Origin: Marsupella aquatica
Lineage: Eukaryota; Plantae; Marchantiophyta
Assembly (NCBI GenBank): GCA_973895155.1
Contig: OZ316893.1
Location: 22,603,844 to 22,667,843 of the forward strand
Reading direction: 5' to 3'
Length of the DNA stretch: 64,000 bases
Below, piece after piece: positions 1-64,000 of this stretch. Under the pieces are notes generated by a model, which worked only from the letters and a program-made list of their open reading frames with translations, was not told where the DNA came from and searched no databases. The translations under genes and the position numbers were made by a program. Position 1 is the stretch's first letter. The number at the start of each line of letters is the position of its first letter.

Positions 1-114
1 CTCCTTGACATCTTTTATCGCCTCAACATCTTTTCTCTCCTCGACATCTTCTATCACCTTGACATCTTTTGCTCACCTCAACATCTTTCATGCAACGCAC
101 GGGCATTGGGCTAG
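1..114 (+). mobile_element. Helitron-type 3' end (element runs off the left edge of the window)
   Basis: Degenerate 'catctttt..cctc(a/g)a' subterminal repeats, then the hairpin-like tgcaacgcacgggc and terminal CTAG|T at 111-115. The same end occurs at 46560-46588 and, inverted, at 8917. Confidence 0.7.
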
Positions 115-20858: not shown

Positions 20859-21051
20859 TCGACTGCTATCTTTCGTTTAAGGTTTCTCCGGTTACTTGTT
20901 TACCCATGTAAAATGCCGCAGGTGTTAGTCGGTGTCCTCACCACGTGTCATCACCTTAAGAAGTCTCCGGTTAGCTTTATCATGTGATATGCAGTGGGTG
21001 TGAAGTTGTTGAACTCACCACGGTCATTGTTTGAACTGTTCGCTGTTTGTC

Positions 21052-33790: not shown

Positions 33791-36255
<2,465 letters not shown>

Positions 36256-39570: not shown

Positions 39571-41816
39571 CTTTATTTAAATTGAAGGAACAAGTAATCA
39601 GGCCAATACTTAATTGTTATATATCACAACTAGACAATGTTGTAATCGTCATTGATGAAGTGCGGTTGTTGCAGCTGTGTTGTCATATCTGGTTTTCATA
39701 GCGGCTCTGTCATAGATGGGGCAGCGTTGTGGTTGTTGAAGTCAATTGTTGTTTTACTGGGTGTTTTGTTGTTGCTGTACTTGCACCTGGGTGGTCATTG
39801 GGGTTGTGTTGTTGCTGGGGTAATGTCTGGACAATTAGAGCAATGCCCATGCATTTCACAATTCATTGAGCAAAGGTGACATTGTTGTGGAAATGTGGTC
39901 ATTGCGGATCTGGAGTCTTTGCACTGAAATTAAACAGGCAGCATAAAATAGGGCATGGAATGAAATGGATAAGGCCAGGAGAGTTGGGGCAAGAGATCAG
40001 GCAAGAGCAGGAGCAAGGCTGATCAAAATGTAGGGGAAGGTTGGGTGAGTCCAGTACAATTAGGACTCCCTTAAATTATCCCCTTTCCAATGTGTGCTTG
40101 TTTACTTGTAGGTTTGGAGCAAAATGACTCTCCAATTTGAAGTATCAAAAAGAACTCACAGCCAATTTCCCCTAGCCTCCTAGATTTCTTGAGCTACCTC
40201 CTCCCCCTTGCAAGTCTTCCCCCTATTTTTGTCCTTGGTTTTTTTGTTTCTTGTAGTTCCTTTCATCCCCCCACCCCCCAACTGCTCAAATCCTCCTTTT
40301 CCCTTTTTTCCTCCCTCTCCAGTCCCATGTTCTACTTTATTTCCCCTCGAAATATATTTTCCCCAACTTCACCCAGCTTTCGGATCATTCTTCCCTCCCT
40401 CGTCACCCAATTCCTTTAGGCCCGCACATGCTACCTGGCCACCTGCTGCCATGGGCAAAGGTCAATTGCCTTTCTTGGACTCTGTCCTATGCAATCCCAC
40501 CAAAACCGCTATACTATGTAATCCCACCAAAATTGGTCCATACTCTGTTTACAAATGGAGTTGTCGGTAGGAACCAATCTGACTAGGCCTATTTTCTAAC
40601 CATAGACCATAGCAGTGCCCCTAGACCTCTCCTAAAGCCTACTTCCTTGGACTGCCAGCCAGTGTGCAACAGTTTGCCTCCCTGGCCAACGCCTGTGCAG
40701 GAATGGGGAGGAGAGGCAGAGGAGGGGAGAGGGGGAAAAAGGGAATACCTCATGCCTCCTTCCTTGCCATCGCCTCCCTAGCTTTGTCCCTGCCCTGAAC
40801 AACCCCCCTCATCCCTCCCTTGCTCACCCTCTTCGCAAAGGTCAGCAACTAACTAGTTTTTTCTTCCACAACACTCCTGCATCAGCCACAATATCAACAA
40901 TACCCTTGACCCCACTCTCAACATTTTCCTTGTTTCCACAGCACTTTTGCATGAACCAGAACATCAACAATACCCCTGACCCCACCCTTGACAATTTCCT
41001 TGTCTCCACAACCCTCCTTTGTCTCTCCTTTGTCTCACCTGGAATTCTTTGCCTCGCCTCAACAATTTCTCTGCCAAAGATATTGGGTCCCTATATTATA
41101 GATGGAAAAGTATAAAGGTCCAATCTTTGGGTAGTTTCTTTGAAGGTGTGTGATGACTTTGGTGGAAACACTGGCAGGACCACCTAAACGCGTTCCAGGC
41201 TCTGTGCATGGACTGTAGCGAATTTCAGGACCTATATCCTGAATTGTTAGGAACAGTCGTAAAGATGAGAAGGTGCCTAAAAAGTCTACGTTCAATTCGT
41301 ATGATCCAATCGTACATACCCATCTGGCCCAAGTCATGACTTTTCCATCCCCGCACTCTGCTGTTTCCTATGGAAAAGCTCTCCCCACAGCTCGCGTCGG
41401 CCATAGATGCCAGCGTCATAGCAGTCGTCACTCCCCAAACACCGTGTTATGGAAAAAGCACTTAGAAAAACAAAAGCTAGTCTTCAACTCTAGCGCAAGG
41501 GATGCCTTGCATTGGTATAAAATTATGCATCTCTTCCACAACCACGGGAATTTAAGCTTCCGAGACCTCCTATCTGGATGGACTGGGGAAATTCTACCGT
41601 TTGAGCTGAATCTCCAGCATGAATCCGAATGCATCTCCGATTTACTAAGGATTACTTTCAGATCTCAGTTGCTGTAAAACCATGTTTGGAGGATTATCTC
41701 TGTAACCGTTACATGCGTCCGAATTCTCCACTGCTTGATCACGGATTGTTTTCATATCTCAGTTTCTGTAAAACTGTGTATGTCATAATCCGAACTCCTT
41801 TCTTTCATTCTTTCAG

Positions 41817-44800
41817 CAATCTAGGTATTTAGCACAGACTCCCGCGTCATTGCCTTTTGGTCCGGATAGAAACTATGTGCCAATTGCGAATTCGATTTTG
41901 CCTCTACGAAATGCACTGGAAAATACAGAAGGGCCCCGAGTAGTGACAGTTTATGGAGGCCCAGGAATCGGGAAGAGCAGCCTAGTGAAATACTTGGCCA
42001 TTCACTACCAAGAAGAGCAGAAGCGACTTGGAATGGACGCATCTTTCCCTCACGGTGTGTATTACCTCTGGTGCGGACATGATGCACGGAACAGAGTACA
42101 GCAGCTGCAACGTGAACTCCTGGAGAATCTTGGGTTTGGAAGTGGATCTGCAACTCCAAATGGCTCTACCAGCACTGGTACTGATGTACAAGAAGCGGAT
42201 TACACTGCTTTGTCTTCAAACAAAATCAAACTCAGATCTCGCTTGGCTGAGCAGGAGTCGCTGGTCATCTTGGACGACTTATGGCAGCCTGAGGTATTGC
42301 AAGAGCTCATCGTTCCTGCAAAGGGTGTTAAATATTTGGTCACATCCCAAATCAGAGACATTCACCTTGTAGCTGAAAAGATCCAGATAAACAGGCCCAC
42401 TCTCAGAGAATCTATCCAGATCTTGGCTAATTATACCGACGGACTTCCAAGAAAGGGTGAATTTCCTGACAATATCAAGGTACGCTTTACAGCTCTGTTT
42501 CGTCAGATTTTCAGTAATTGATGTTTACCGCTAGCGGATAAGGTTTTGGCAAGGCTCTATTTCGAGTACGTAGGCTTTGGAGAAATGAAGGCATGAGCCC
42601 AATTCTCATATGTAAGGCAGCCGCTGTGACATTTCCAATTAGCGTAGTCTTGTGACTGATATTTAACACTATTACTTGCCTCAAGCAGAGCATTGCAATG
42701 GATATTATTGGACTGTTAGAGTTCCACCCGCTGTCTTTGGCCAACATTGGCATCAGCATAAACAGGAGTCGGGCAACTGATATAAAACAGTGGAATGTGA
42801 TAAAGAAACATATATACAACCACCTTGATGAAAGTGATTACAGTCCACCTGCCTATGAGAAGCCATACGGTCTTCCCGTGAGTGTGTCGATGATGCTGAT
42901 GGTGGAGTCGCTACCTGCAGAGGCACAACGGCTCCTTTTCTTGGTGGCTTTGTTGAAGGGTGTAGAATTGCCTGAACCACTAGTGAAGTATTTCTACAGC
43001 TTTATGCAAAAGAAGAATTTTCTGTTGAAGTTTAATCATCATGAGAGGTGTTTAGAAGATAAGTCACTGCTTCAATTGGCCATAGGAGGAGATGGCACAA
43101 TTCTGGACATTCATGGGTTGAGGACGCACTACATTTTAGACAGGAAAAAGCCTGAAGTAAGATCAATAGGTTCTCAAATATTAGCTGCCAGTGCGGGTCA
43201 AGATGTAGCTAAGCTTGTGAGGACGGGGGGAGCAGAGGAAACACTAGTTGCTGTTTTGAGCGCAATGTACTACGATGAATCGCTCGAAGATATTGCAGCG
43301 GGCACTTTCGCGAACCATGTTCGTTTGATCAATGGTGCGGTGGTTCCACGGAACTTGAATATGGAGAAAGACAGACTTGATCTCGTTAAGAGTGCACGAC
43401 GAAAACACTACGGAATCCGAGACCTTGTTTGGCTCTTGAATGCTGATCATGAAGAAGACAGTTGGGAACGACAAGCCCACGAGTCCACAAAGAAGGTATG
43501 GTTTATCATTGCCTAGGAGCAAGTTAAAATGTCGAGATTACAATGAATTTTAATCAGAACTTGTCTCAGTTGTTTTGATATATTGATTCGAAATCAGTCG
43601 TGCGGTGCGTGTTATTATTAAAGATCTTTTTCGGTCAAACCAAAGATGTGATTAATTTTGCGTAGACCTAAATTTTAGTCCAAGAAGAAACGCGATGTCC
43701 TTCATAGGCTCTTCGTACCCATCACATTGTATAATTCTGAAGTGAGTGAAGTTTCCTTGCTGTTTGGATAGTACCCACATTTATCAATGACTTATCATTC
43801 GGGGTTTTGGTGATTGTGACAGATTATCATCAAGTACGTTTGCCAAGGAAAATTGGAGGACCATAGTATGGCACACCTACTACGACTTCCCCAGGCCACC
43901 TCAGCAGCATGTAGAGCACTCAGGGCTCTTTATCATTGCCATGCAGAAGATTTCTTTCAGCACAATATAACTTTTTCAGAAGCATATGTTGAGACGATGC
44001 ACAGTCTGTTGGATCTATTCCATAGCAATGCCATATCAATGGACGAACGAATAGATGTCATCAATGCTTTTCTGCATATTCTTGATTACGAAAGCAAGGA
44101 CTACATCCGCAAATTTGCCGCAGACTATGAGAAACTCTTTGCCATGAAGTCAAATAATTATTTAAGTGAGTGTACAACATTTGCTTTGCGATCGGATTGG
44201 CGTGGTAGAGGGATTCTTACGATGGCAGAGTTTCCTGGACTTTTGGAGTCAATCGTTGTGGTACTAGTAGAACCTGAGAATGACGAGTTAAAAAACGAGG
44301 CAGTATGCCTTTTAAGTTGTTTCTGTCAGCACAGGCGTTTGGCCACGAGAATTGCTGCTTTGCCGGATGCGCTTAATGCGCTCTTCAAGCTTTTCTTATC
44401 CGAGGATGAGCTCCCTAATCGCTTCCTCGATGGCGTCCCCGATGGGTTCTTATCAATTGTACGAAATGGGTGCGCGGGAGCTCTCCTGCTTAACCTTTCA
44501 CATATACCGGAAAACAGGAGTAAACTGGGGGCAATCTCAGGCATCTGGGATGGCCTGGGAGGTATTCTCAGTAAGCTGGAGAGTCAGGAAGACCTGCACT
44601 ACCGTCAGAAGCTACAGGCTTGTGACGCCGCCGGAATTCTGGGGTATCTGGCATTGGAGGAGGATCTTAGAGCCACCATCGCTTCATTTCCTGGCGTTAT
44701 GGAAGGTTTGTTTGTCTTGCAGTGGATCGAGATAGTTATCGAAGCTACTTCCACTGACATGACGGCTAGATATTATTATTCAACAAGAGCATTGATAATA

Positions 44801-45695
44801 CTGTACTCCAAGGAACTGGCTGTCGCAGAATTAACTGACATGCCACCGATAGAAGACTTGGAGAAGTTGTTTGCTTCCGACAACCTTAATGTGTCGAAAG
44901 CCATGATACATAAATCTTATTTCAGTCTGTATTGGACTCGACTTCTGGCATGTATTCAGATCAAATCCTACGCAGAAGGCTTGAAAAATGTGGATCTAGC
45001 TCACTGTCATGCCGATCTGGTCCGAGAATTCGGTTCGGAGAATCTGGTCTGTCAAATTAGCAGTTTCGGGATCCAAAATTCCATTCATGTCTCCCCCGAA
45101 AGCCCATTAAGGTGAGGAAACCTTTTCCTGTGGATCTAAAAATCCACGCCTGTCCCTGCCAGTTCATTTTGCCTACAGTGTATTGTTTTTGAGATGTAAT
45201 ATCTCGTCACAGGTCGTTAGTACTCAAGGTAATAAATTCATCGCTGACCAGAGTCCTGAAATTTCTTTCCTAACAACCGATAACTCCCTTATTAAACGCC
45301 TTCCAACCGCTGTGATACCTTCGGCTTGTCTCTGACTTAACACTACTAACTGCAGGGACTGTCGCACATTTCTACAAGCTATGCTTGAGGACTACTCAGG
45401 AGCCTTGCTGGCTACAAACAGGAGAGTTGAGGAGTATAAAGAACCTTCACGGGACAACTTGGCTGAGAGGGGAGTACTGAAGAGGCTTTCTGGAGATTTG
45501 CAAGGAGGCCTGGATGACTTAAATGCTGCCACTGTCGCACGTTACGGACTGAGTGACGAATGGGATGTCCTGTGGCAACGAGGTTACGTGAAGTATTTGA
45601 TGGGCGACAAGACAGGGGCCAAGGATGATGCAGAATCTGCCCAACGCTTGAAACTTGATGACTTTTTAAGGAAGTCCGTGGACCCTTGTATTTAG
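41817..45695 (+). CDS. NLR-like paralogue (NB-ARC, ARM, TPR) lacking the N-terminal domain and ATG; exons ~41817-42479, 42689-43495, 43823-45111, 45356-45695; possibly a pseudogene
   Basis: GGPGIGKS, LVILDDLW, KYLVTS, HPLSL, DIHG. Same intron positions and phases as 16325-20858. Open frame throughout, but no in-frame ATG before the P-loop. Homology (PVTYLG) continues past TAG 45693 to a second TAG at ~45760. Confidence 0.75.
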
Positions 45696-46169: not shown

Positions 46170-46587
46170 CCATTTTTTTTTGTGTTTCCTCAACAACCTT
46201 GCTTCACCTCGACATTTTTTTCCCATTTCAACATCTGTTATTCACCTCAACATCTTTTGTGCAATGCATGGGCTGTAATTTTTTGTGTTCTTGAACTCAC
46301 CACGACATCTTTCCCTCACCCTCGACATCTTTTCTCATTTTTTTTCACTTTGACTTCTTTTCCTCACCTCAACATCTTTTTCTCTCATTCACAACTTTTT
46401 TCACACCAACATCTTTTCTTTGCCTCTAAATCTTTTTCTCTCATCGACAACTTTTTTCACACCAACATTTTTTCTTCATCTTGACATCTTTTTCTCTCAT
46501 TGACAACTTTTGTCACACCAATTTTCTTCACCTTGACATCTTTTTTCACCTCAACGTCTTTTGTGCAACGCACATGCATTGGGCTAG
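46170..46587 (+). mobile_element. Helitron-type 3' end
   Basis: Many catctttt/cacctcaa subterminal repeats ending in tgtgcaacgcaca (hairpin) ...gggCTAG|T. Confidence 0.7.
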
Positions 46588-47463
46588 TAACATATGAAAA
46601 GGGGATGAGAATCCATCAACGTGCCCAAGGTAAATAGCTCAATGATCAAATCCTTCCACACTCCCTACCACCAGCAAACACTACAACACTATCGGTCGGT
46701 TTTGCGAAGACAATCTCATCGCAACTAACAAGCCCCTGATTTTCATAATTCTGGCCATTGCGAACATACGCGCATCGCACCACCTTCGCACTTTGCGAAC
46801 CTAATAACTTTGCACGCGGACCATCGCAACGGCATCGCAACACCATGGCAAACTGCGAAGCTAAGAGGTTCGCAAGATTCAATACTTGTGCGATCCATTA
46901 TACGTCGCATAAGGTTCGCAAACATACACGCACACGTCCCGCGTGGGCGTCGATATTTGAGAAGGATTTACCATCGCATCATATTTGCAAAATATACTGG
47001 TTCAATTGTTTTGATGGGGATTGTATGACAAAGAGCGATACCGGTGATTTCAGAAGTTTGTGAACGGTTTCGATTAGGAAAGTGCGATCCTAGAAGTATC
47101 ACAAAAACCCGACATATTTGGATCTGAAGTTCTGAAGTTAATTGACTCAAAAAGTGCGACGCCTTGGGGTTTATATTGTGCGATGGGAATGAGTTCTTAA
47201 AGGGTTCGCAAAATTATGATCACAGAGGATTCAATACATTATTTGCAAGGGGTTTTCCTTGGGACCCAATGTGGAAGGCAAAATTGTTGTTTTATAAAAT
47301 GGAAAAGCATGAACAAAATGATAGGGCTTCAAAGAACCCTATACATGGACAAGAGGGGGGAAATATCTGATGCTAGGTCCGCCCTTCTAAACCTATGCTG
47401 CCTCTTCCTACCCTAAGCTCCGGCATGACAAGTCACTCTCATGCATGTATCTCTACAAAATAA

Positions 47464-50400
47464 CTAGAATGGGCTCTTGTGGCTCCTCTTGGTTGGCTTC
47501 TTGGCTGGCTTCTTGCCCTTATCCTTCCGGGGATCCTGTTGGTGACGGGTGCGTGATGGCCGTCGGCGCTCCTGCTCCTGCTGCTCCTCTGGCTCCTCCT
47601 GCCCCTCCTGCTCCTCCTCCTCATCCGCAGGGTCCTCCTCCTCCCCCTGGTCATCAACATGTGCTGATGACACACGACTACCACCACTACCACGGTGGGA
47701 AGAACCTACCTCACGACTACTCCCCCCCCCCCGAGCACCACTAGTACCAGGAGTAGCCCCCTCATCGTCATCACTACTACTCACATCAGCACCCAACCCC
47801 TCAGGCTCATCCGAATCCTGCATCCATTACATATCATTAGTTTCCGCAAGACATAAAGGGTCACTCACAATGTTCGCATGCTAATCATATGGTTCACACT
47901 TAGACACTTACAGTAGCCAACTCGGCATCTACCATCACAAAGAGGTACTTTCGTCCATGCTCTATCGCCACCTCAATATGCTTTTTTGATATCTTCCTTT
48001 TGTACCTCCGATACTGCCATGCATAAAACCAATTAAAATTGGTTAAATTTGCCCTTAAGCATACCCTATAGCCACAAGTGACGCCTAAATCCTCAACTAC
48101 TAAACACGACCCAAAAAAATTTTTTAATTCAAATTTGCGAACCTATAAGCATGGCAACTTGCGAACCACATTTTTTGCGAAGGCGTTGCGATGGAGTTTG
48201 CGATGCGCATTTGTTCGCAAAGGCATCGGAAAATTGAAATGGAAAAAGTCCATGATAGACTTTGCGAGGGGTTTGCGAACAAATGCGCATCGCAACACCT
48301 TCGCAAACTGTGTTCCCGAGAGTTTTTAAAAATTTGCCAAAAATTCTAAGTGTCAGAGTTGCCCTAAACTAGTAACCAAGCAAGCATGCACAACAGCAAG
48401 AACATTCGGGGATGTCATTCACTTGCATTGCACAACTCTGAAAGGAATAGAGAGGTTAGGCACAAGCAAGAGGCACTCACAAAGTGTGACTTGAGGCCGG
48501 GGAGCCCGCCTTGACCCAACTTGTGGACTGGATTGGGGGTGGATTTCACTCGTTTGGCTGCATCTATGAAACGCTTGGGTGGCTTTCCCTCCTGGTCGGC
48601 CACTGTGACGCCAATGACATGGTCCTTATTTTGTAATCTGATTAAGTAGGTTGCTGTATGCAAGGAGTAGCTATTGATATTGCATAACAATTAACAAGAT
48701 GGCAAGAATAAGGGCAATCATGGCGTTAAGAGTAGGGAAATAAAAGCTATGTCGCGGGTGGTCGATGACCATATCTCTTTCAATATGTCACCAAATCCGG
48801 ATCTGTAAAGAGCATTGGAAAGATCTGGTCAAGGCGAGTAAAATCAATATAAAACACTCGGGAAACAGAGGTGTATTAAGGAAGATACGGCCTGATTAGT
48901 GTGACGGGTTAACTTGTGGCCGGAATTAGCGGGTTCGGCTTCAGTTTCGGGTTAACCCAAGCTCGACCACGGCTTAGCTTATGTGAGCACGGCTTTGGCT
49001 TAGCTCAGGTCAGCACGGCTTCAGCTTAGCTCAGGTAAGCACGGCTTCAGCTTAGGCTTAACCCGGGTTCGGATTAGATTGATCCCGGGTTAGACTTAAC
49101 TCAGGTTAGCCTAAACTCGGGCTCAGGTTAGCATAGGTAAGCTCGGGTTCGGGCTCAGCTTAGGCTAGGATAGCGGATAGCGGGTAGCGGCCTAACCCGA
49201 GACCACGGGTTAGCTCTACTCGGGTTAGATAGGATAGCTAGGTTAGCCGAACTCGGGTTAGCTATGTAACTTGGGTTAGCGCAATAGTGAGTACCCCCTC
49301 TCGGTTACGGGGGCATAACTCTCTGTGTATTTGACCAAATCGGCTATAATTGACCTCGTTGGAAAGAGGAGCTCAAGCCGCTTCCAACGCTGTTATCCAC
49401 GCAGCAAATGGTTGAATACAGAAATCGGGAGAGGAGGCGTAAGCTCGCGAAAACCATGGAGGAGGGCCGAATCCGAAGTACATAGCCAATTCGAGATAGA
49501 AATAAAGTTGCGAGTTAGGGTTCAGTAGTTAGAGATAGTGGCGGCTCTGTTAGGGCTGGGATGGGGCTCCAGCAGCATAGCATCCACCCATTTGGGCTCA
49601 ATGAGAGAGTATATAGAGCAGCCCTCCGGTAGAGGCAGCGGGGGAACTTCAGTTGTGTGATCTCACTTAGACTGAGCAGCAGGGAGGAGCTCTGTGCAAG
49701 CAAGGCTGGACTTGGACGCTGCGTGTTGGGGAGAGCTTGGTTGTGCTATTACTCAGGGAGTAATCAGCCAAGCTTCACAGCAACGGGTTGCTAGGTTTGC
49801 GAGCTGGATTGTGGCTCTTTCTAGTGGGCAACACAACTGAGTTCTTTTCCCCCGATACAGAGCCTTGGTGAAGGTGATGTGTTGGTGATTGTAAACTGTG
49901 GGGAGGATTTCAATGCGATTTGCGATGGGCACATTAGGGAGGCTGAGGTACTGATTTAGGGGCAACAGGAGGAGCATTTATAGTTCAGTCTGGCAAGGCT
50001 ACGAGATCCATGGGGAGTCCCGGCCTTTGTCTGGTGGAGAGCACTAAGGGATCTATGGCCAGAGCTGAGCTTGCAGGGCAAGCATGAGGCCGGGCCTCAT
50101 TGTAGTCTGGGGTAGATCACCGTTAGGCCTGGTACCAGCTTTGAAGTCGAGTCAACTGTGCATGCGTACTTGACATTCTGAAATGGAGGTGTGAGATCTG
50201 TATGTGCCCCCAAGAATGAAGTGCAGTGAAGGAGGTTGAGTTCAGGATTGAGTTTGCAAGGCAAGTACGGGATTGGTTCGAGTCCAATCTGCCGTCGCAA
50301 TCTGGAGTGAGCCGGGCTCAGGTTCAGGATTGAGCTTGCATGGCAAGCACGGGGCTTGCGGGGCAAGCACGTCGCAATCTGGAGGAGACAGCCTTCGGGC

Positions 50401-51935
50401 CTAGTGTTCGGATCAAGTGTTCTCAGTGAACTATTGTGCACATCTTTGAATCCAATTGAGTTTTCCTTTCAGGCCTCATTTCTCTCATGGATGTGTGTGT
50501 GTGTGAGGCAATCTGAGTGTATGATGAGACTAGCAGCGCCACTGAGAGGTGTACCGGGTGCATTGAAGTGGGTTGGGTGAGGGCTGTCACAGCTCTAATT
50601 GCTGAGAGTGGAATGGCAGAGTGGTGGGGCAATGGCTTAGAAGTCCCTAAGCTGGGAATCAGTCAGGAGTCACTGGTTTATGGGTACATTACGGCGGTGG
50701 AATAGAAATATACCTATGACAGTAAGCATACGTATAGACCTATGTGCACCGTAGCGCTAGGCCTTGTGTGTACGGGCCCGATATGAAGACCCCTTCTCAC
50801 CAGAACTATCATGAGCGCAGATCTGATCCCCAACCTTGGTTCCTTGGGATTGAGCTTGGGTGATGTGTGATAGAGCTTTGCTATGATAGTCTGGTGTTAA
50901 GGGCATAAATTGGTGTTTACCGGCCTTCACAACATCCCTTCGTGATCCTCAGGTACAAGGAGATGGTTTTGGCACCCATAGTGACGTCTTTGGTGTTAAG
51001 ACCCATGTCAATCGCGTGACAGCCACCTTCTGCATCTCAGCTACCTTCTGCTCAAGTGGCTTCAGGTCGTGGTCAGGGGGGAGCTTCCCGGCCTCCTTTG
51101 CTTTCAAGGCTCGATCTAGATTGCCCTTCCACTCTTCCAACTCGTGAGCTGCCTTAATTTGCACCTCAATCTTGTAAAACGAATTCCATATGTCCTCGGT
51201 GAAGTGGAGGGGTCTGTGCAAGTTCTTGTATGATCTCAAGTCTTTCAGGTGGGCTCTAATCTTCATCCTGTCATGGTATCGCATTTGAGACATAGAATTT
51301 GAAATCTTATCTGCCAACCATTGCTCATCTATGTCAGGCCCATTGCGAAATGCATCCTTGATTTGGTTGATGACCCTCTTTCGCTCTGCCTTCTCAATCT
51401 TCCCCCACTGCATGCCTCATGAGAAATTGCTTGTGATAATCTGCTTGATTGTGCTCTTAGCCCCTGCATATGCTAGCTCAGTTGGAGTCCCACTCGTCTC
51501 CAAGGCAATGAATGGAAGTTTTTTTCTTGCTTCCTCTTTCTGACGTTGCTCCTCCCTCTGTTTTCGAATTGAATCTCTCTCCTCTCTTCTCTTTTGCTTC
51601 TCTAGGGCTTGAGGAGAGGCAACTCCCGACTTAGTTCTTTCCTCTCTCTTCCTTTTTTTCTCTCTAGCCTTCTCTTCAGCTGCGGCCCTCTCCTCCCCCT
51701 CTCTAGTAGCTTGTCCTGCTACAATCCCAGTTTGCAAAACCTGTCCAAGAATGGCACTCAAAGAGGCAAGCCCTGCTGGAGAATTGAGATTCACTTCTCC
51801 CAATTGTGCAGCACTGAGATGTTGGGCCACTAAGTCTGCCCAGGCATTCTTCTCTTTCTCCGGATTTCCCCCATTGCCACTACCACTACCACTACCACTA
51901 CCACCTTGCCCTCCACTCCCCTCACCGGTAGCCAT
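47464..51935 (-). pseudogene. Divergently oriented CACTA accessory gene (possibly TnpA-like), disrupted by a stop and an LTR insertion
   Basis: ATG 51935 (MATGEGSGG..), charged coiled coil, in-frame TGA at 51417, and frame continuing to ~51022 where the LTR cuts it. Further exon-like pieces at ~47915-48020 and an acidic/basic tail at 47464-47823. Confidence 0.55.
48413..51021 (-). mobile_element. ~2.6-kb LTR (solo-LTR-like) nested in the CACTA
   Basis: TGTCA...TGACA termini. ~49170-51021 is the reverse complement of 62202-63965. No gag/pol. No TSD found, so the left boundary is less certain. Confidence 0.7.
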
Positions 51936-52929
51936 AGCTCCCCTCTCTCACAGTCTCCCTCGTACTGTTGCGCGCGCCCCGGCCCTTCTCGTCTCGCTCA
52001 AAAACTGAAATGAGCCCGAATGCGAGCTCCCGCCGATGTTTATGCCGTTCAAAAACGGGTTTGCGATGACATACGCATGGGAAACTGCGAAGCCCGCGCC
52101 CTCGCAAATAGTCTCGCAACTTACTAGGCACTTCCGAATCTATTCCCTTCGCAAGGCCATCGCAACCCGTAGAAGACCCAAAAAATCGTTCTCGGCCTCT
52201 GTTTTTGCGAAGTAAGTGCGAAGGCCGTAGGTTCGCAAAAAGATTCTCTAACTTGGAAATAATTTGCGAGGCAGGTCTTATCGGTTTAGGGTTGGAAAAC
52301 ACTTTGGGGTGTCAAATGGCTATTAAGGTTTGTCAAACGACATTTAAGGTATGTTAAGTGCCCATAAGTTAACATGGAAGGGGTGTCAATGGATGTTTGG
52401 GTTGTAAGGATAACTAGAATATAAGTTAACAAAGGTTTGGGTTTAATTAAAGGTTAGGTTTATATTTGGTTTTAATCTAGGAGTATTTGGTTTAATTAAG
52501 GGGGTTAAAACTTGGGTTAGGTTGGAATAAAAGGGTTGGGTTTAAATTAATGGGTTTGGCTTAGGGTTCAAGGTAGAGGTTTGCATTAGGTTGTGAGTAA
52601 TTACAGGGGTTGGGTTTGGTTTTAGTTGAGGGGTTGAATTGTGGTTGTTTTTTAAAGGGATTGGGTTTGGTTTTTAGTTGGGGGGTTTAATTGTGGTTTT
52701 TTTAAAGGGGTTGGGTTTCTAATGTAAGTGTTTGGGTTGGGGTGTAACATGATATAGGGTTGGATTTGGTTCTAATTGAGGGGGTACAATTTTTGCTTAA
52801 GTTTTAGAAAAGGGCCTCAATTTAGGGGTTAGGGTGAAGTTTAGAATAACTATAGGGGTGGGGGTTGGCCTATATAGGTAAAGTAAGGTGTAGATAGGGT
52901 AAGGGTTTTATATGTAATTGGGGGATTTG

Positions 52930-53650
52930 GGTTGGGTTTAGGGTAAAGGTTTGAATTTTTAATGAGGGATTTGGGTATTGGTTAGGATAAGGGTAAGGGT
53001 TTAGGGTGCTTGAGGGATTTGGGTTAGGTTTTAATGAAGGGTTTCATTTCATGGTTTGGGTTTAGGGTAGGGGTTTGGGTTTAGGGTAAAGGCTTGAATT
53101 TTTAATGAGGGATTTGGGTATTGGTTAGGATAAGGGTAAGGGTTTAGGGTGCTTGAGGGATTTGGGTTAGGTTTTAATGAAGGGTTTCATTTCATGGTTT
53201 GGGTTTAGGGTAGGGGTTTGGGTTTAGGGTAAAGGCTTGAATTTTTAATGAGGGATTTGGGTATTGGTTAGGATAAGGGTAAGGGTTTAGGGTGATTGAG
53301 GGATTTGGGTTAGGTTTTAATGAAGGGTTTCATTTCATGGTTTGGGTTTAGGGTAGGGGTTTGGGTTTAGGGTAAAGGTTTGAATTTTTAATGAGGGATT
53401 TGGGTATTGGTTAGGATAAGGGTAAGGGTTTAGGGTGATTGAGGGATTTGGGTTAGGTTTTAATGAAGGGTTTCATTTCATGGTTTGGGTTTAGGGTAGG
53501 GGTTTGGGTTTAGGGTAAAGGTTTGAATTTTTAATGAGGGATTTGGGTATTGGTTAGGGTGAGGGTAAGGGTTTAGGGTGATTGAGGGATTTGGGTTAGG
53601 TTTTAATGAAGGGTTTCATTTCATGGTTTGGGTTTAGGGTAGGGTTTGGG
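52930..53650 (+). repeat. Tandem array, 5 x 143 bp, rich in telomere-like TTTAGGG motifs; preceded by degenerate GT-rich sequence from ~52400
   Basis: gggtaaagg recurs at 52941, 53084, 53227, 53370 and 53513 (period 143). About three gggtttaggg motifs per unit. Confidence 0.93.
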
Positions 53651-54087
53651 TTACTTATATTTCTTTCTCTATCTCATTAACATGGAGTGGAAAGCTCTTT
53701 GGCGTTGTAGGGCACTTCCCCATGTTTTTTAAAGTTTTGGCTAATGCATGATAATGCCTTGCGACAGCCCGGGCATCTGAAAGGTATAATGTTTTCTCAT
53801 GCATTTCTAGTCATTGCTGTAAATATGGAGGGTTACAATCTATCATCCTTTTTTTCTGGTTCACCATAAGGCATGGCTTAATTCATTGTATATTGGCAGA
53901 TTTTCCCCTCCTTCTTCCAGATATGGTTCATGAAATTTGAGCCACAAGATCCGTCAAGGCATTGCTAAGCCCGGGTCTCATAAAGGTATTTTTTTGTCAA
54001 TTCTTTTTAATATGTTTAGGTAGGGATTATCAATGATGGTTTTGGTGAAGTTTTCACTAATCGCCTTCCAATTGCTATACTTGTCAG

Positions 54088-55249
54088 ATGTCTTCATCCT
54101 CTACAACTTCCACCACATCAGATTCCTCTTCCGATGAAGAAAGTCGTCCTCCTCCTCAGCCTGAACCAACCGTATGTCGACCTAGTGGTCCACCACGCCA
54201 ACTTTGTGGTTGTAAAAAATGTGTGGGGATGGTTGTCCAAAAGTCATATGTATGTGCGGAGCACATTGCTCGATATGGCCAACATCGAGGTCTTACACCG
54301 GGAGCTTCTTCATCCCGTATGGTGAGTTGTAAACTTACTGTGATTTCCATTTTATTTTGTAAATCTTGCTAGGTAGCATAAAATAAAATTTGGGAGGTTC
54401 ATCACACTCACTTGGTTCCATTTCTTCCTATAGGTATCCAGTAGGCCTACACCCACTACACCAACACCCTATGTTCCCTCACAAGGAGTTCTAGATGCTA
54501 TAGGCTCGGCACTTTCACAAGCTTTCTGTTTAGTGGCAGCAGGGCAAGGTAGTGTTGGGACAATTCAGGGTGACGGTATTGTTACAAGAGGGAAAAAAAA
54601 GTCAAAAAGACAGCCTAGAGGGGAATTGGATCAATACACTTGTAGGGTTGATGGTAGATGGGGCCCTTGTACCTTCACAGGGAAGTGTGTTCCTATCATA
54701 AAGGATTGGAATCTGGAGTGCCTTGGTTTGCCATGTGATATAACCTATGGTGAGGAGATAGAAGTTTGGGGAAGACGTTGGGTTGTCAAGAGTTCGACCC
54801 TAGGGGAGAGGCATGGGTATGGGATTTTCTCTTGTCATGACATTATTGTGGATGATATGGGTGGAAAAGGGCGCTCTTCGGATGGACCAACGTTGTTCCC
54901 ATATGGTGGACCCATTTACAAGAGGAGACATTGGAACATGATCCTTGTTCAACACCCTGAGTGGAAGACTTATGCATTGGACATGGATACTTTTGATGGT
55001 TGCACCAGAAAGTATTGTGACCAGTGTATAATTGATGGTGATCCCATCCGTAGTGGGAATATTGCCGGTTTCATCAACAGTACTGTGGGGACCCGGCCTA
55101 AGCGTAGGAAAAACTGTGAATGGGTTTTTGTTGATGGTCCCCCTCCAGCCCCTTATGGGCAGAGATATCATCATGACCATTGTCTAGTTGTAGCTAATAG
55201 GACCATTCTGGTTGGAGAGGAGTTGTTTACACATTATGAATGGGATTAG
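54088..55249 (+). CDS. CACTA-encoded SET-domain protein, ~349 aa; exons 54088-54321 and 54434-55249
   Basis: Exon 1 has CGCKKC...CAEHIARYG (resembles the transposase-associated Cys/His motif). The GT-AG intron (atg|gtgagt ... tatag|gta) is phase 0 and keeps frame. SET hallmarks: VKSS..HGYGIF, PYGG, YAL, IDG...GNIAGFINS, VVANRTILVGEELFTHY. Confidence 0.8.
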
Positions 55250-55399
55250 GATTACTTTAGGGACATGTATTATACGTTCATCGTATGTGAATGTATGTTT
55301 TGTAATGACATGTTCTTTTTATATTGTTAATAATATGTTTCGAGCACTACTATATTTGGAGTTAATTTCATTGTGAATGCTTTATTGTATTGTCTATAG

Positions 55400-58300
55400 A
55401 ATGTGCGGCCTAGTCAAGATATGTTGCCAAGGAGGTTGAGAGTTACATATCAAGAAATGGGCTTGCCACAAGACGGGGAAACATCATCAGCAGATTCCTC
55501 ATCAAGTGACAATGATAATGACAGTCTAGATGAAGGGGCACCTCAGACAGATTATGAGGTCATGCAAGACCAAGAGTCAGCCATGGATGACTTCATGACA
55601 GATTGGTTTGTTGTAGACATTGGTGGTGAAGGAGGTGTCCCACCCAATGAAGGAGATCCTCCACCAAATGTTGCACATGATCCAAGGCCTCAATGTACAC
55701 CTGAAGGACAAAAACGATGGGAAGAAGCTGAGGCACATGCTAGAACACCTATTTATGGGGGTGCTCGTTTGAATAGACTATCTGCCATCTTGGCATTGAT
55801 GAATCTTCACGCAAAACACAAGGCAAGCAATGCGCTACTATCGGATTTGTTTGCAATTTGCCATGATCTATTGTTACCCAGTGAAAATGTGTTGCCAGGA
55901 ACTTGAAAGGAGGCAAAGAGGGTTCTATCATCCATTGGCATGGAATACCATATCATTCATGCTTGTGTGAATGACTGCATTCTCTATCATGAGACCAATG
56001 CCAGCGTAACTGAGTGTCCAATTTGTCAAGAGCCTCGATATGAAACCAACATGTTGACCTCAAAGGTGCCTAGAAAAGCTGTTCATTGGTTTCCTATTAT
56101 TCCTCGATTGTTGCACATGTACCGATGTTCTGACTTGGCAGAATTGATGGTATGGCATAAGACACATTGATCAGAGGCCGGTGTCATGCGGTTGCCAGTT
56201 GATTCCCCTGCTCACAAGCATGTGGAGTCACAATGGCCAGAGTTTGCACGTGACCCTCGTCATGTGAGGTTAGGGTTGGCATCAGATGGGGTGAGCCCAC
56301 ACTCCCTTGGAGGGAAAGGGCGCCCTACTTCGGTTTGGCCGGTGGTTGTTATGAATTACAACCTTCCCCCATGGTTGTCCATGAAAAAGGGATTCTTATT
56401 GCTATCATTGATTATCCCAGGTCCATCTAAGGTAAAAAACATGGACACCTACTTGGCGCTCTTGGTTGGGGAACTCCATAAATTATGGGGGGGTGTATGG
56501 GCATATGATGATCGGACAACTACAGGAGGGTTACCACGTGTCTTCCAATTGAAGGGAATCATTATGTGGACCATGCATGACTATCCAGGTGAGTGGTATG
56601 GATTTGTATTTTTTTCATGTATTGGAGATCAAGTTTGTTTGGAAGGAAGTCCCTCTTTAATTCTATATACATGAACTTTTCAATTCCTTTGACTCTAATT
56701 GAGAATGTTATTTTGTGAGCAGGGTTTGGGTTTGTTTCTGGGTTCCAAACTCAAGGGTACAAGGCATGCTCCACTTGTGGTCCAAGCTTTCACGATATGG
56801 CCAAGTACTCAAAATGGCTGCACAAGATAATCTACCTTGGTCATACCAAGTTTCTTCCACTTGGGCATCACATGAGGTCTGACCCCCTTTTGTTTTCAGA
56901 CTTTGACATGATCAATGGTGATGAGCGTGAGATACCTGACCGCACAACATTTTCGTATTGAAAATCCATAGCTGATAGGGTGGCAGACCCTGAAGATGCC
57001 ATGGGATTTGATGGTAGTGGATTGACAAGGTGGAGTATACTGGCCACTTTGCCCTATTGGCCTGAGTTGAAGATTCATCACTTGTTAGACCCCATGCATA
57101 TAGAGGGAAATGTTGGGAAGGCTTTGATCAAGCACTTTTATGGGGAAAAGAACATAATTTTAGGGAGGCATGCCAGGATCTAGAACGACATCCAGATGTA
57201 TGGATAACAGTTGATGAATCCATAGGGATGGAACATTGTCCTTCAGCTCCATGGGTTTTGAGTGTTGGTGAAAGAAGAGAGTTTTGACAACGCATAGGGC
57301 AGATGCGGCTTCCTACAGGCTATGGTGCCAATCTACGTAAGGCTTTTGGGATGAAGGACAGTCATAAATGGCCAATGTATCTCAAGACACTTGACTATCA
57401 TCGTTTACTACAACATATACTTCCTGTGGCAATCATAGGTTTGGGGAGTGAAGAAGTGCAAGACGCCCTTTGGTCACTGGGCACTTTGTTGAGATGGATA
57501 TGAGCACTCAAAGGAAATATATGAAGAAGAGATACCACGGATGGAGGTATTGGCAGCAGAGGTGGTATGCAAGTTGGAGAAGGCCCTCCCTCCTTCCTTC
57601 TTTGATTGTCAGGTGCATCTTCTCGTTCATCTTGTGAGGGAGGTTGCCATTGCCGGTCCGGTGCATTGTAGGTGGATGTATTGGCTGGAAAGGTATATGG
57701 CCGTGTTAAAGGCTTATGTACGGAACCATGCACGAGTGGAGGGGAGCATGGCAATTGGATACTTGGCAGCTGAGAGTATGTTTTATTGTAGTAACATCTT
57801 AGCTACCATTGATCCTAGTTGTCCACGCACTTGGATGGAAGAGAGGAAAGTGGAGGAGGACCGTTTAACAAGTGCAAAAAAACACGCTTACTAACCGCAG
57901 TGGAGTTGACACAGGTTAGTACTTTCATGTTGAGTAACAGCAATGTGATGGAAGATTGGAGAGAGTTTTATGAGGATGCAAAGAGGGAGAGTCATCGCGG
58001 TCAAAAGCAAGCTTGAGGGGTACTAAAAAGTCTCCCATTTTCTCCACAAAAAGGATATACTCCTTGTCCTTATTCCAAGAATATTCCATAATGACCAAAA
58101 TGTGACATGGAATGGTTAGGATTGCTTGGAAAAACTTTAAAGGTTAGATCTTGCATGCCAAGTCTTTGGAAGTGTGCACAACATTGTTGGAAGTGCCCCC
58201 AACCTTGTGGAAGTGTGTCCAACCTTTTGGGGAGGGTATTCAACCACATTTTAATGACATTTTTAGTCCTTTCCTTCAGTCCTTCAAAAGTGATTGTCCT

Positions 58301-59018
58301 TAGTCCTGATTGCCTCCTTTGGTACCCCTCGATCTTGCTTTCCACCTCGCCCAAGGATCTTTCCAAAGTTCCTTGAGTATATGAAGGAGAAAGTACTTCA
58401 GTTGGATGCTATGGTGGCCCAAGGTGAGAATGTATCACATTTTCCAGATATGACTCCTGAGGTTCGAACAATTGTTCATGGTCCTTTAAGACTTGTTCAG
58501 ACCAGAACAGCAATGTGGACACAAGGGAGGCATTTCAGGATTTCTGACCTTGATGAGAAGAGGGGAAGAACTTTTGATTGTGGAGTTCAAGGGCAGTTCA
58601 TGCAAGATTCACAAAGTAGCCGTCATGACACTAATGTGATCAAAGATGTGGTGCCTCACTATGGGAAGATTGAGGAGATCTTGATCATATCCTATGATGC
58701 CGATTCCAAATTTGAAGAGTATGTCTTCAAGTGTAAGTGGTTCAAAATTCACCTGGTTGGTGATAATCGCACGGTACTTCTTGATGAGTGTGGGTTTACT
58801 CGACTGAAGACATCAAAACTAGCTTTCAACCATCTCATTGGCAAACATCTGAACCATTTACATTCCCAAGTCACCTTGAGCAGTGTTTCTATATTCCGTA
58901 CCCACCAGACCCAGAGTGGTCAGTTGTTATACCGTATGTGCCACGGTCCCATTCCATTATTCGGAAAAACCTGACGTTATTATTGTGTCAAATGGAGGAG
59001 GATGAGGACCAGGTTTGA
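55400..59018 (+). pseudogene. CACTA transposase (Tnp2/Transposase_21-type with downstream conserved domains), inactivated
   Basis: IHACVNDCILY..CPICQEPRY, FPIIPRL, LGLASDG, YNLPPWL, HDYPG, LDPMHIEGNV, PPSFFDCQVHLLVHL, WMYWLERYM, YGKIEEI, FKCKWF. Stops at 55904 and 56168 plus frameshifts. Intron 56589-56722. Confidence 0.92.
57999..58346. mobile_element. 348-bp MITE inserted in the transposase
   Basis: TIRs ggtcaaaagcaagcttgaggggtac / gtacccctcgatcttgctttccacc with a 4-bp TSD tcgc. Removing it restores ..RESHRPRIFPKF.. Confidence 0.85.
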
Positions 59019-62000
59019 TGCACTAGTAGTAAAACTTGTTGTGGGCCCAGAATTTGACCCTAAACTAACTATCATGGTTTTATTTATATTAACATATTAA
59101 TTTTCTTCTTTTGTTTTACAAACACTTAATTGGACTTTGAAATTTCATCTCACTGTTATATATGCAACCCTAGCCGTTTCCAAAGCTATCCTCATGCATG
59201 CCACCTTTTTGAAAACCCTACCTGTAACCTAAACACATGCATTCTCCATCTTGTAAAGAAACTCTCTCAAACATTTCCATTCTACAAACTTTTCAAACAA
59301 CTCTCTTTGCAAAACATTTTCAAGCTTGTCAAGAAGCAACTTCTGAACACTTTGTGAATAACACACCATTGGTAATTGTGATGCCAATGGGTTCTCAACT
59401 TTGCGAATCAACTGGCTTCGGTAACTTGCGACTATTTATACTTCACAATATTTTGCGAAGCTAATAGGTTCACAAGATATATTTGAGTACATTATTATCG
59501 CTAAATTATGAAACAAAAGAGATCCAAATGCAGTCGCGATGGTCGCGGATCCACAAATACTTTGCGAGACGAATAGTATCTGAAAGAGTTGCGAATTCAA
59601 TCCGATCTCAAACAAATTGCGAGGTATTTAGCTTTGCAATGTCACTATGTTGCGAACCTTTGAGCATGGTTTATTGTGATGCGTGTTTGATCACAAAATA
59701 TCTGAAGTCGATGACATCGCAAGACCATCCCGGCGTAAAAAAAAAGCTTCGCAAAAGGGGCCAATATGTAGTAGTGAAACAATAAATTAGAATAGTATAA
59801 AATGGCCAATATTGTTTCTGACATGCTAGGCATTCTCCAAACGTCCACCCGCCTTCAAAATCCTCCATTTTTCTTTTCTTCTGCCCTCTCCCCTCCCCTG
59901 CTCTCCTTTATTTCCCACCCTGACCCAAGTTTTAGATGATGCCCTCCCTCCTCACCCGATTCCTTGGGGCCCCCCATGCTCCCTAGCTACCTGTTGCCAT
60001 GCACAAAGGTCACTGCCCGCCGTGCACTCTATATGCCCTTTTAAAATCATTTTGACTATCAGGAAATATGATACTCTTTATGCCCTCTTTAAAAAATTTG
60101 ACTATCAGGAAATAACATGGACTCTATGCCCTTTTATAATAATTTTGGCGATCAGGAACTTAAAGGATGGACCTGCAAGTTGTCCATGAAGCCATGATGG
60201 AGAAACCAAACCTGCATGGACTTCATTAAAACATGAGGATATGCTTGGATACTGGTTTTTACATTTTTGTCCCAAATGAAAAACCAAACCTGCATGGACT
60301 TGATTAAGATATTCTTGGATACTGCATTTTACAGTTCTATCCCAAAAATACATTCATTTGTCAGTAACCAAATCATCACTTCAATTTGTCCAGAGATTTT
60401 CTTTGTCACTAACTCTGTTACCATTTCTATCTTAAAAGTACTTTGTCAGTGTCCATAGCGCTTTAATTTGAGAGCATGGCTTCATTCTTCCAATACTCTT
60501 TCCCTCCACATAGTTACTCTAACCATTTTTTTAGAGTTTAGTAAAAAAATTAAAAATTTAAAGTACATTTAGGTCCTTAATTATATAAATACCTGATCTG
60601 GCCTTCATGGTAGATGGAACATTGAGTAGATTCAATGCTTCACATTTTACTCATACGGCTCAAGTAATTTGCCCAATGGTGAAAACCAAATGAACTAAGT
60701 CTTAATTTCCTCAACAAAAAACAATCATGCTTATAAGCCCCACAAAAGGAAGGAACCAAGCAACAAGATGACTCATGAACCAAGGAAACAATTCTCACCA
60801 AGGAGGCTGGGGGGCAAATTAATCTCTGAAATTACAATTTTTTTATACACAATCATTCTTGAGATCAAATCATTGATACTTACGAGGATACTTAGTTTCC
60901 AAAATGACTATATGACTTTCACAAATGTTGTTACAAAATCTTGATTTTATAGAGCATTGCTCTTGTTACCAGAATTGTAGTAATTTTTCATTGCAAAGCT
61001 AAAGGAAATTTTAAGTTGCATAAGTATTGTTGTAGAATCCTAGTTTTTCAGAGACTATTGGTCTTGTTATAAAGAGTTTTGATTAATTTATTGTTGCAGA
61101 GCTACTTGAGATTTAATTTTTTGGGAGTCTTGTTGATGAATCCTATTTTTCAAAGAGCGCTTAGAGTAATTTTTCCGTTGTGAAGCTACCAAGAATCATG
61201 TTTTTCATACAGCGCTGCCCTTGTTACAAGAACCGAGCACTTTGAGTACTTTGTCGCTGCCCAAGAGATTTTAAATGTGCACCTTCAATCCACCTTCAAT
61301 CCATTCTCATGTACATTCTCAATTTGATTTTAGATCACATAATGTTCTTGTCCTGACAGAAATTTAGGTAAACAATTAATGAGAGGAATTCTCCATGAAT
61401 TCTGATCCATTTGCAGGTGGGTTGTCTCAAGATTATGTGTGAAATGATCTGTCCTCTTTCACAGTCCATGGGGATAGCTAAAGACAACATAATGGTCCAT
61501 CCGAGCTTGGGTTTTGATAAATCACACTGCCCAAATCCAATCCCACCTCGTTGAATTCATAAATAAACCTTGCCCAATGTTTTGGGGGATCATCAACCAC
61601 TAACCCCTATTACCCATTCTTTGAATGTGAATAGAAGAGAGTACAATAAAGTTGACAAAATATATTCTCTATTCCAATTCTTTGAATATTAATGAAATAG
61701 GAGAACACAACCATGCATGTCATCATCTTATTCTTTGAATATGAATGAAATGATACAAAAGTATCATTCATGTCGTCATTTTAACATGACCAATGAATAT
61801 ACCATCCTCCTATATATATTGGTGGGGCCCTAGAGTCTCAGTCTAGAGGCTTTACTCTAGAAACCTAGCCCCCAACTCTAGCTTCTCTTTGCGGCTTATA
61901 AGTGAAATTATAATTATCTGCAATCCCATCTAAACCCCTCCACTGTCTATTTACAAATGGAGTTAGGGGCAGGAAGCAATCCAGGCCTAATTTTCACCAC

Positions 62001-62201: not shown

Positions 62202-64000
62202 TGTCAAGCGGTTGACATTGGGTCTTGACACCAAAGCTATCACTATTGGGTGCCAAAACTATCTCCTTGTACCTGAGGATCACGGAGGGATGTTGTGAAG
62301 GCTGGTATACACCGGTTTATCCCCTTAACGCCAGACTATCATAGCAAGACTCTGTCACACATCACCCAAGCTCGATCCCAAAGGACCAAGGTTGGGAATC
62401 AGCTCTTGCACTCATGATAGTTCTGGTGAGAAGGGGTCTTCATGTCGGGCCCATACACATAAGGCCTAGCGCTACGGTGCGCATATGTCTATACGTATGC
62501 TTACTGCCATAGGTATGTTTCTATTCTGCCGCCGGAATGTACCCATAAACCAGTGACTCTGACTGATTCCCGGCTTAGGGACTTCTAAGCCATTGCCCCA
62601 CCACTCTGCCATTCCACTCTCAGCAATCAGAGTTATGACAGCCCTCACCCAACCCACTTCAATGCACCCGGTACACCTCTCAGTGGCGCTGCTAGTCCCA
62701 TCATACACTCAGATTGCCTCACACACACACACACATCCATGAGAGAAATGAGGCCTGAGAGGAAAACTCAATTAGATTCAATGATGTGCACAATAGTTCA
62801 CTGAGAACACTTGATTTGAACAATAGTCCCAAAGGCTGTCTACTCCAGATTGCGACGTGCTCGCCCCGCAAGCCCCGTGCTTGCCATGCAAGCTCAATCC
62901 TGAACCTGAGCCCGGCTCACTCCAGATTGCGACGGCAGATTGGAATCGAACCAATCCCGTACTTGCCTTGCAAACTCAATCCTGAACTCAACCTCCTTCA
63001 CTGCACTTCATTCTTGGGGGCACATACAGATCTCACACCTCCATTTCAGAATGTCAAGTTACGCATGCACAGTTGACTCGACTTCAAAGCTGGTACCAGG
63101 CCTAACGGCGATCTACCCCAGACTGCAATGAGGCCCGGCCTCATGCTTGCCCTGCAAGCTCAGCTCTGGCCATAAATCCCTTAACTAGTGCTCTCTACCA
63201 GACAAAGGCCGGGACTCCCCATGGATCACGTAGCTTTGCCAAACTGAACTGTAAATGCTCCTCCTGCTGCACCTTGATCAGTGTCTCAGCCTCCCTACTA
63301 TGCTCATCGTAAATGCAATCAAAATCCTCCCCACAGTTTACAATCACCAATACATCACCTATCACCAAGGCTCTGTATCGGGGGAAAAGAACCCAGTTGT
63401 GCTGCCCACTAGAAAGAGCCACAATCCAGCTCGCAAACCTGGCAAACCGTTGCTGTGAAGCTTGGCTTGCACAGAGCTCCTTCCTGATGCTCAGTCTACA
63501 TGAGATCACACAACTGAAGTCCCCCGGCCCCCCCGTTGCCTCTACCGGGGGTCTGCCCTATATACTCTCATATTGAGCCCAAATGGGTGGATACTACGCT
63601 GCTGGAGCCCCGTCCCAGCCCTAACAGAGCCGCCACTATCTCTAACTACTGAACCCTAACTCGCAACTTTATTTCTATTTCGAATTGGCTATGTACTTCG
63701 GATTTGGCCCTCCTCCATGGTTTTTGCGAGCTTGCGCCTCCTCTCCCGATTTCTCTATTCAACCATTTGCTGCGTGGATAGCAGCGTTGGAAGCGTCTTG
63801 AGCTCCTCTTTCCAACGAGGTCAATTATAGCCGATTTGGTCAAATACACAAAGAGTTATGCCCCCGCAACCGAGAGAGGGTACTCACTGCTGCGCTAACC
63901 CGAGTTACATAGCTAACCCGAGTTCGGCTAACCAAGATATCCTATCTAGCCCGAGTAGAGCTAAACGGTGGCCTTTGGATAATCTGCTACCCGCTAGTCT
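62202..64000 (+). mobile_element. LTR of the same family as 48413-51021, running off the right edge of the window
   Basis: Begins TGTCA and is a colinear reverse-complement match to 51021->~49170. TATA-like cctatatact at ~63557. Confidence 0.8.

Follow-up and report, generated by a model that had tools for sequence, protein, structure and literature searches.

Why should a plant transposon carry a SET-domain gene, and what would its product do for the element? The question is raised by a 64,000-nt stretch of the liverwort Marsupella aquatica (hereafter the window), in which a frame resembling a lysine methyltransferase lies inside a CACTA element. The original prediction took this frame for a transposon-borne chromatin writer or decoy that controls the silencing of its own element.

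The host element is a CACTA/EnSpm transposon, with characteristic termini, a 3-bp target-site duplication, a Tnp2/TnpD transposase and subterminal motifs all present (Table 1). The termini read CACTAC at 46679 and GTAGTG at 59776 in inverted orientation, with 9 of the 13 first positions matching between the two ends, and AAA stands on both sides (46676–46678 and 59777–59779). Although this 3-bp duplication is of low complexity, it is backed by an empty-site joint (46675→59777) in contigs of runs X1 and X4, and the bounded CACTA element of the original prediction is thereby upheld. The insertion site is a 19/56-nt pyrimidine-rich repeat (46176–46580) that is also found at the start of the window (1–88), and the empty-site contigs probably derive from other copies of this repeat. 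The left end of the element, CACTACAACA, recurs in five moss-type loci, a set defined here as 34 metagenome loci with Sphagnum-like proteins.

Table 1. Coordinates of the CACTA element and its parts within the window; shuffle values for TCGCA motifs refer to 200 shuffles.
Feature	Position	Strand	Description
CACTA/EnSpm element	46679..59776	.	13,098 nt; ~10.3 kb minus two nested insertions
Left subterminal TCGCA cluster	46703..47210	.	18 motifs in 46679–47300; shuffle mean 1.7, max 6
Divergent accessory gene	47464..51935	-	First exon ~51935–48423; putative acidic second exon near 47826–47464
Internal TCGCA cluster, presumed intron of divergent gene	48136..48305	.	10 motifs; shuffle mean 1.1, max 4
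Nested solo-LTR-like insertion	48604..51021	.	TG...CA ends; 5-bp duplication GCCAC; ~2.4 kb
Internal TCGCA cluster, presumed two-way promoter region	52021..52269	.	Just upstream of divergent gene; 11 motifs; shuffle mean 0.7, max 4
Five 143-nt G/T-rich tandem repeats	52932..53652	+	98% alike; telomere-like TTTAGGG motifs; between the two genes
SET gene, exon 1	54088..54321	+	78 codons from ATG; GT at 54322 is a phase-0 donor; Ser/acidic start, then CxCxxC-x13-H
SET gene, exon 2	54434..55249	+	271 codons and TAG; short helix, low-complexity linker, SET domain (about 54764–55246)
AT-rich spacer	55250..55399	+	73% AT; four TGTA; phase-0 acceptor at its end
Tnp2/TnpD-type transposase	55400..59018	+	Intron 56589–56722
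Nested MITE-like insertion	57996..58349	.	354 nt; 32-nt inverted ends; inside transposase
Right subterminal TCGCA cluster	59402..59753	.	9 motifs; shuffle mean 1.3, max 5

The transposase is identified by Transposase_21 (PF02992, 136.8 bits, E 7.7e-40) and DUF4218 (PF13960, 115.6 bits, E 1.3e-33), with a weak match to DUF4216, and is broken in the window copy by stops at 55904, 56168, 56959 and 57285 and by several frameshifts. The two nested insertions formed no part of the original prediction. The solo-LTR-like insertion is private to the window copy, a joint across it (48598→51022) being found in four of four runs, while a joint bypassing the MITE-like insertion (57994→58347) is found in three of four. 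A second copy of the 2.4-kb LTR-like repeat lies inverted outside the CACTA element at about 62204–64000, and the repeat has a very high summed depth in the contig runs. The young, TTTAGGG-rich 143-nt array could serve as a telomere-box promoter element or as a protein-binding array; it does not occur at comparable size in the moss-type loci. An Rfam search of the element gave no match.

Directly upstream of the transposase, as originally described, the two exons of the SET gene combine into 349 aa without a stop, the splice being predicted from the sequence; no exon–exon joint occurs among the joints listed for contigs of eight runs, whose contig kind is unrecorded. The motifs GYGIF, YGG, IDG, GNIAGFINS, ANRTI and GEELFTHY follow one another in frame up to the extreme C terminus, where they had been placed, and the protein terminates three residues past the catalytic Tyr. 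Exon 2 matches the SET family PF00856 at 25.1 bits against a cut-off of 22.4, with nothing else at E ≤ 1. Neither a chromatin-reader domain nor a known DNA-binding domain was found in the SET protein. Exon 1 goes beyond the original prediction in that it is not a neutral leader and carries the CxCxxC-x13-H motif, which stands N-terminal to SET in 11 of 123 proteins scanned, distant lineages included, most of the others being too short. This exon also matches Transpos_assoc (PF13963) weakly and below cut-off (E 0.024). The only other match among the exon-1-bearing sequences scanned, likewise below cut-off, is in a Riccia-like relative (P0087, E 0.031). The Transpos_assoc domain normally stands at the start of the CACTA transposase; the transposase exon at 55400 has no match of its own.

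We modelled the 173-aa SET core from a 61-row alignment (pLDDT 91, pTM 0.85), and a fold search with this model retrieved SET domains exclusively. The best match is Set1 (Z 13.1, rmsd 2.3, 120 residues aligned), followed by SET8 (Z 12.8, rmsd 2.2, 123 aligned), EZH2 (Z 12.2), PRDM3, NSD2 and SET7/9 (each Z 12.0) and LegAS4 (Z 11.8). On the strength of this predicted structure exon 2 is a true SET fold, in agreement with the original prediction. A 23-row alignment of the entire exon 2 yielded a model of pLDDT 38, and its profile matched no solved structure. Activating (Set1, MLL), repressive (EZH2, SUVH6) and H4K20 enzymes tie as neighbouring rows of the fold search, so that neither the substrate class nor the methylated residue can be read from the fold. 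The viral contigs searched contain no relative of the SET protein, and viral SET folds match at 14–21% identity only, so a viral origin is not supported. We also rejected a PR-type (PRDM) domain, PRDM2_PR being unmatched at E ≤ 1, a C2H2 finger array being absent and the Z of 12.0 for PRDM3 being tied with those of non-PR enzymes.

The closest solved structure by profile is LegAS4 (E 1.3e-5, ~26% identity), described as an active H3K14 methyltransferase whose motif reads YINFS, without the His (10.64898/2026.05.29.728679). Given this precedent, the missing His of the window protein appears harmless, and the change from NH to NS, originally taken as reminiscent of PR-type or atypical SET domains, loses that meaning. 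The GxG glycines, the SAM-binding Asn and the C-terminal catalytic Tyr are all present. With SET-core residues numbered from 54728 and conservation taken from 61 aligned relatives, G30 (56/59 rows with the residue), G32 (58/59), N117 (55/61) and Y170 (51/54) are kept in at least 90% of rows; Y82 is kept in 56/61, and Y59 is replaced by Phe in 16 of 60. The LegAS4 dead allele changes six residues. In the profile alignment four of these, Tyr135, Tyr159, Asn181 and Tyr220, align with Y59, Y82, N117 and Y170; Ser158 aligns with T81, a Ser/Thr swap, and Tyr231 has no counterpart, falling past the end of the SET protein. LegAS4, also called RomA, is a minimal foreign SET protein in the eukaryotic nucleus according to the available text on this Legionella effector, and it differs from the window protein in its ankyrin reader repeats and longer post-SET region. 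The match shows a compatible active site, not a common substrate or origin.

The three-residue post-SET tail is a real doubt on enzyme activity. According to a review (PMC3178901), SAM is held through the backbone by five atoms and through the side chain of a single Asn, and a very short post-SET region is offered as a possible cause of inactivity in PRDM constructs. Among the 51 relatives with the catalytic Tyr, 36 have a tail of at most eight residues, some perhaps cut short (median 5), and 30 have a Trp at +2 after the Tyr; a partner or dimer could supply the missing segment that closes the cofactor and lysine pockets. At −2 relative to the Tyr, 50 of 51 have a small or aliphatic residue. 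We take this position to be the Phe/Tyr switch, at which a small residue presumably favours multiple methylation. From conserved residues and the modelled fold together, the SET protein probably binds SAM and methylates a lysine.

How the SET gene relates to the transposase is suggested by their splice sites. The exon-1 donor, SET acceptor, SET stop and transposase acceptor hold phase 0 in the window and in the loci, the distance from SET stop to transposase acceptor is 139–153 nt throughout (153 nt in the window), and the spacer is 68–71% alike in the four moss-type loci tested (z 3.1–3.7 against base shuffles). The seven codons before the first Met of the transposase are conserved (NVRPSQD or NIRPSED), and so are likely translated from an upstream exon. 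As judged from these signals, exon 1 likely joins either the SET exon or, skipping it, the transposase exon. A complete SET–transposase fusion of the SETMAR type is excluded by ordinary splicing because the SET stop is conserved and no GT[AG] donor occurs after 55190, past the last SET motif. A weak search among proteins of 476–2000 aa found no longer fused form; two gene models (P0027 and P0072), which are predictions, join SET or part of it to the transposase. Intron 1 gave mixed results against moss-type introns (z 0.2–3.5), and the transposase intron has no similarity to them beyond shuffles (z −0.3 to −0.5).

We then asked whether SET belongs to the family or to this copy. The search with exon 2 returned 41 relatives and that with the SET core 84 clusters at 50% identity; from 30 proteins examined by cluster, the named relatives come from Calypogeia fissa, several Sphagnum species and Riccia sorocarpa. 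Domains of known host SET classes were absent from the 60 relatives scanned. A Calypogeia protein (P0001) and a 360-member Sphagnum cluster (that of P0004, with an intact 343-aa model) are annotated as the same two-part protein; many gene models labelled 'SET domain-containing' in Sphagnum and Riccia probably belong to transposons, so that counts of host SET genes come out too high. Where the SET end is complete and at least 300 nt of downstream sequence is available, the transposase follows in 19 of 19 loci; adding truncated SET copies makes this 19 of 23, all four misses being truncated. The linkage of SET to Tnp2 that the original prediction proposed to look for holds for every complete copy counted. 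In the four exceptions (L022, L026, L029 and L030) the SET match ends early and no transposase follows, and in L029 and L030 a CACTACTAC end lies ~1.4 kb further on.

Pairwise comparison of the window with three loci, by a simple counting method, gives a dN/dS of 0.15–0.17 for the SET core (95% intervals 0.08–0.27), against 0.10 for the transposase in the window–locus comparison; dS is ~1.0–1.2 for both, which is near saturation. These values indicate purifying selection on SET between lineages; together with the linkage to the transposase, they make SET a regular gene of this CACTA family with its many copies. Among sibling moss-type copies the SET dN/dS rises to 0.7, like that of the transposase, and 11 of 18 SET copies contain stops: most family copies are dead, and it is the active lineages that are under selection, not the resting copies. 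Contigs of run X3 that lie ~1% from the window copy have word depths of 541 at the left end, 545 at the promoter, 604 in SET and 620 in the transposase; word depth in X3 does not equal copy number and X3 may be another accession, and the values are consistent with a young, abundant family with SET throughout.

The original prediction had also set a clean SET frame against broken neighbours. The stops in the transposase and the divergent gene are real, but the contrast is borderline (the 349 SET codons are free of lesions, against about 9–12 in the other genes; P about 0.04–0.06, from rough counts, in a comparison chosen post hoc), and the clean frame is weak evidence for selection on the window copy. 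Against the dominant sibling contig, the window SET has six non-synonymous and four synonymous differences, a count limited to the ten among the rows listed. Given this ratio and the stops in sibling moss-type copies, we rejected selection on the window copy. Recent neutral capture of a host gene, one of the outcomes that the original prediction named as refuting it, was rejected on account of SET–transposase linkage and purifying selection across lineages.

SET trees place the window, Calypogeia P0001 and the Sphagnum copies in one clade (support 98/96 with 69 rows, 99/99 with 17 named rows), separate from Riccia and other Calypogeia lineages. An AU test rejects a tree that keeps the liverwort rows together (p 0.003), the group having been picked after the tree was viewed. 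Together with a dS short of saturation and the weak spacer similarity, the tree gives a hint that the family passed horizontally between leafy liverworts and peat mosses. Old paralogous lineages account for the tree too, and the transposase intron carries no signal of transfer. Two further Calypogeia fissa proteins (P0109 and P0143) represent a distant lineage of SET, whose Cys/His-rich N terminus is of another kind and whose catalytic Tyr is followed by a long tail.

Of the 12 loci that extend at least 1800 nt upstream of SET, 10 have the divergent gene there. It has a dN/dS of 0.16 against L028 and matched no Pfam family or Atlas cluster; the window copy has one stop (51417–51419) and is interrupted by the solo LTR. 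Its protein contains Lys/Arg-rich stretches, and we infer a TnpA-like role. The motif TCGCA forms four clusters in the element, is absent from the SET gene and occurs once across the 3.5 kb of the transposase. All four moss-type loci that span the left half (L005, L007, L023 and L032) share the left, intron and promoter clusters, and the right cluster is also found in L023. Clusters at element ends are ordinary for CACTA, and their sole role may be transposition; the divergent protein is a natural candidate for the TCGCA binder.

In maize En/Spm, TnpD and the DNA-binding TnpA arise from one CACTA transcript by alternative splicing. The arrangement proposed here would likewise draw two proteins from one gene, with SET as the alternative product and a separate divergent gene beside it. 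SETMAR is a domesticated fusion of host SET and mariner; SET and transposase coding sequences adjoin there as in the window, and the SETMAR SET domain is among our fold matches, whereas the window element stops short of a full fusion. Transposon-borne SET is already known from an EnSpm-superfamily element and three further transposon groups, which the original prediction missed. The Plavaka elements of red algae, within the EnSpm superfamily, are described as carrying SET in the accessory gene PAG2 (10.1101/2025.02.11.637652), with a function that, as here, is putative. PAG2 combines SET with an N6-adenine DNA methylase and is one of three genes in a cassette of the Plavaka lineage, whereas in the window SET stands alone, preceded by a first exon of transposase type, within a land-plant CACTA of the Tnp2 type; no N6-adenine methylase family was found in exon 1, exon 2 or 60 relatives. 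SET proteins are also attributed to the HarbingerS and MuDR DNA transposons of Phytophthora (PMC12730594) and to Helentrons (PMC4067079). These belong to other superfamilies in oomycete hosts, the available text reports no shared exon for them, and the Helentron SET is described as Clr4-like, unlike the window SET, which has no close host class. The TCGCA clusters have a parallel in VANDAL21 of Arabidopsis, in which motifs of the element-encoded accessory protein VANC21 are described in introns, upstream regions and non-coding parts (PMC5735166); VANC, however, is no SET enzyme: it belongs to Mutator-like elements, binds DNA and brings about the loss of DNA methylation. For land-plant CACTA we found no published description of SET in a search outside Repbase and subscription journals, where a curated entry may exist, and the available text of PMC11982613 and PMC12973397 does not mention it.

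What, then, does the SET protein do? Our preferred reading, held tentatively, is that SET and transposase are likely two splice forms with a common first exon, and that the SET form is likely a histone lysine methyltransferase that keeps copies of the family active. Joining exon 1 to the SET exon would give a short transcript ending in the 150-nt spacer; joining it to the transposase exon through the acceptor at the end of the spacer would bypass SET. The SET form would be recruited to the element by the shared Cys/His module or by a protein bound at the TCGCA clusters, may methylate more than once if the small switch residue acts as in other SET enzymes, and would lay a mark that counters host silencing. 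A more ambitious account, which we consider rather unlikely, is of an old and diverse bryophyte CACTA lineage in which one gene would yield, under a common zinc-binding address tag, the transposase in one form and a minimal SET enzyme in the other, the enzyme would be steered to TCGCA and keep the family expressed, and the kit would have moved sideways between leafy liverworts and peat mosses.

An active lysine methyltransferase could instead modify a non-histone substrate, such as its own transposase, the divergent protein or a host silencing protein, and so tune transposition. We judge this unlikely. In its favour, the pre-SET, post-SET zinc and reader domains that position nucleosome enzymes are absent, the minimal SET resembles bacterial and giant-virus forms, an N terminus in common with the transposase would bring the two together, and the divergent protein offers its Lys/Arg-rich stretches. 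Against it, histone enzymes make up almost all of the top fold matches and include LegAS4, the solved structure closest in sequence, and comparable transposon cargoes act on chromatin or DNA marks. Quite unlikely, too, is a catalytically incomplete SET that serves as a decoy, reader or scaffold, or as an enzyme that needs a partner to close its SAM pocket. The short tail, the lack of a counterpart to LegAS4 Tyr231, the Phe at position 59 in relatives and the inactive PRDM constructs with short post-SET regions (PMC3178901) all favour it, yet across lineages only 30–45% alike conservation is highest at the catalytic Tyr and at the Gly and Asn that bind SAM, residues that a pure decoy need not preserve.

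Self-restraint, in which the SET form marks its own family repressively or merely diverts transcripts from the transposase and so spares the host, strikes us as improbable. Splicing to SET would exclude the transposase from the same transcript, EZH2, SUVH6 and ATXR5 are among the fold matches, and bryophyte transposons are described as covered by H3K27me3 and H3K9me2 (10.1101/2022.10.24.513474); on the other side, the family looks young and abundant, from the X3 contigs (word depth 540–620) and the 360-member Sphagnum cluster, and a splice sink would need no conserved catalytic residues. Least credible is the capture of a host fragment that evolves neutrally, or the domestication of one copy for the use of the host, a reading already largely refuted. 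The clean frame beside about ten transposase lesions speaks for it, whereas no host SET gene of a known class occurs among the 41 and 84 sequence matches, linkage and purifying selection extend across lineages, and the listed differences of the window copy stand at 6:4.

If the more ambitious account is true, no histone methyltransferase encoded by a land-plant transposon would precede this one. The likely shared first exon suggests a simple switch between moving and chromatin writing. The available text of the sources cited reports no functional tests of transposon-borne SET genes of oomycetes and red algae. A young, abundant bryophyte family near transformable models makes it directly testable, in Marchantia or Physcomitrium, whether a transposon can write histone marks to escape or tune silencing.

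Elsewhere in the window, three related gene copies with NB-ARC, helical-repeat and TPR-like parts (16307–20858, with an NB-ARC E of 3e-10; 23276–24889; 41772–45695), one of them apparently decayed, form a small immune-receptor-like cluster. Pieces of non-LTR retroelements with weak RVT_1 matches lie at 1441–4521, 21346–22197 and 37892–39576, and 1300–2257 and 21050–22005 are inverted copies of one non-LTR 3′ part. A class III peroxidase exon (35794–36255; one gene, six matches) points to a leafy liverwort as the likely host, its identity being 77% with a protein of Calypogeia fissa and 53% with one of Marchantia.
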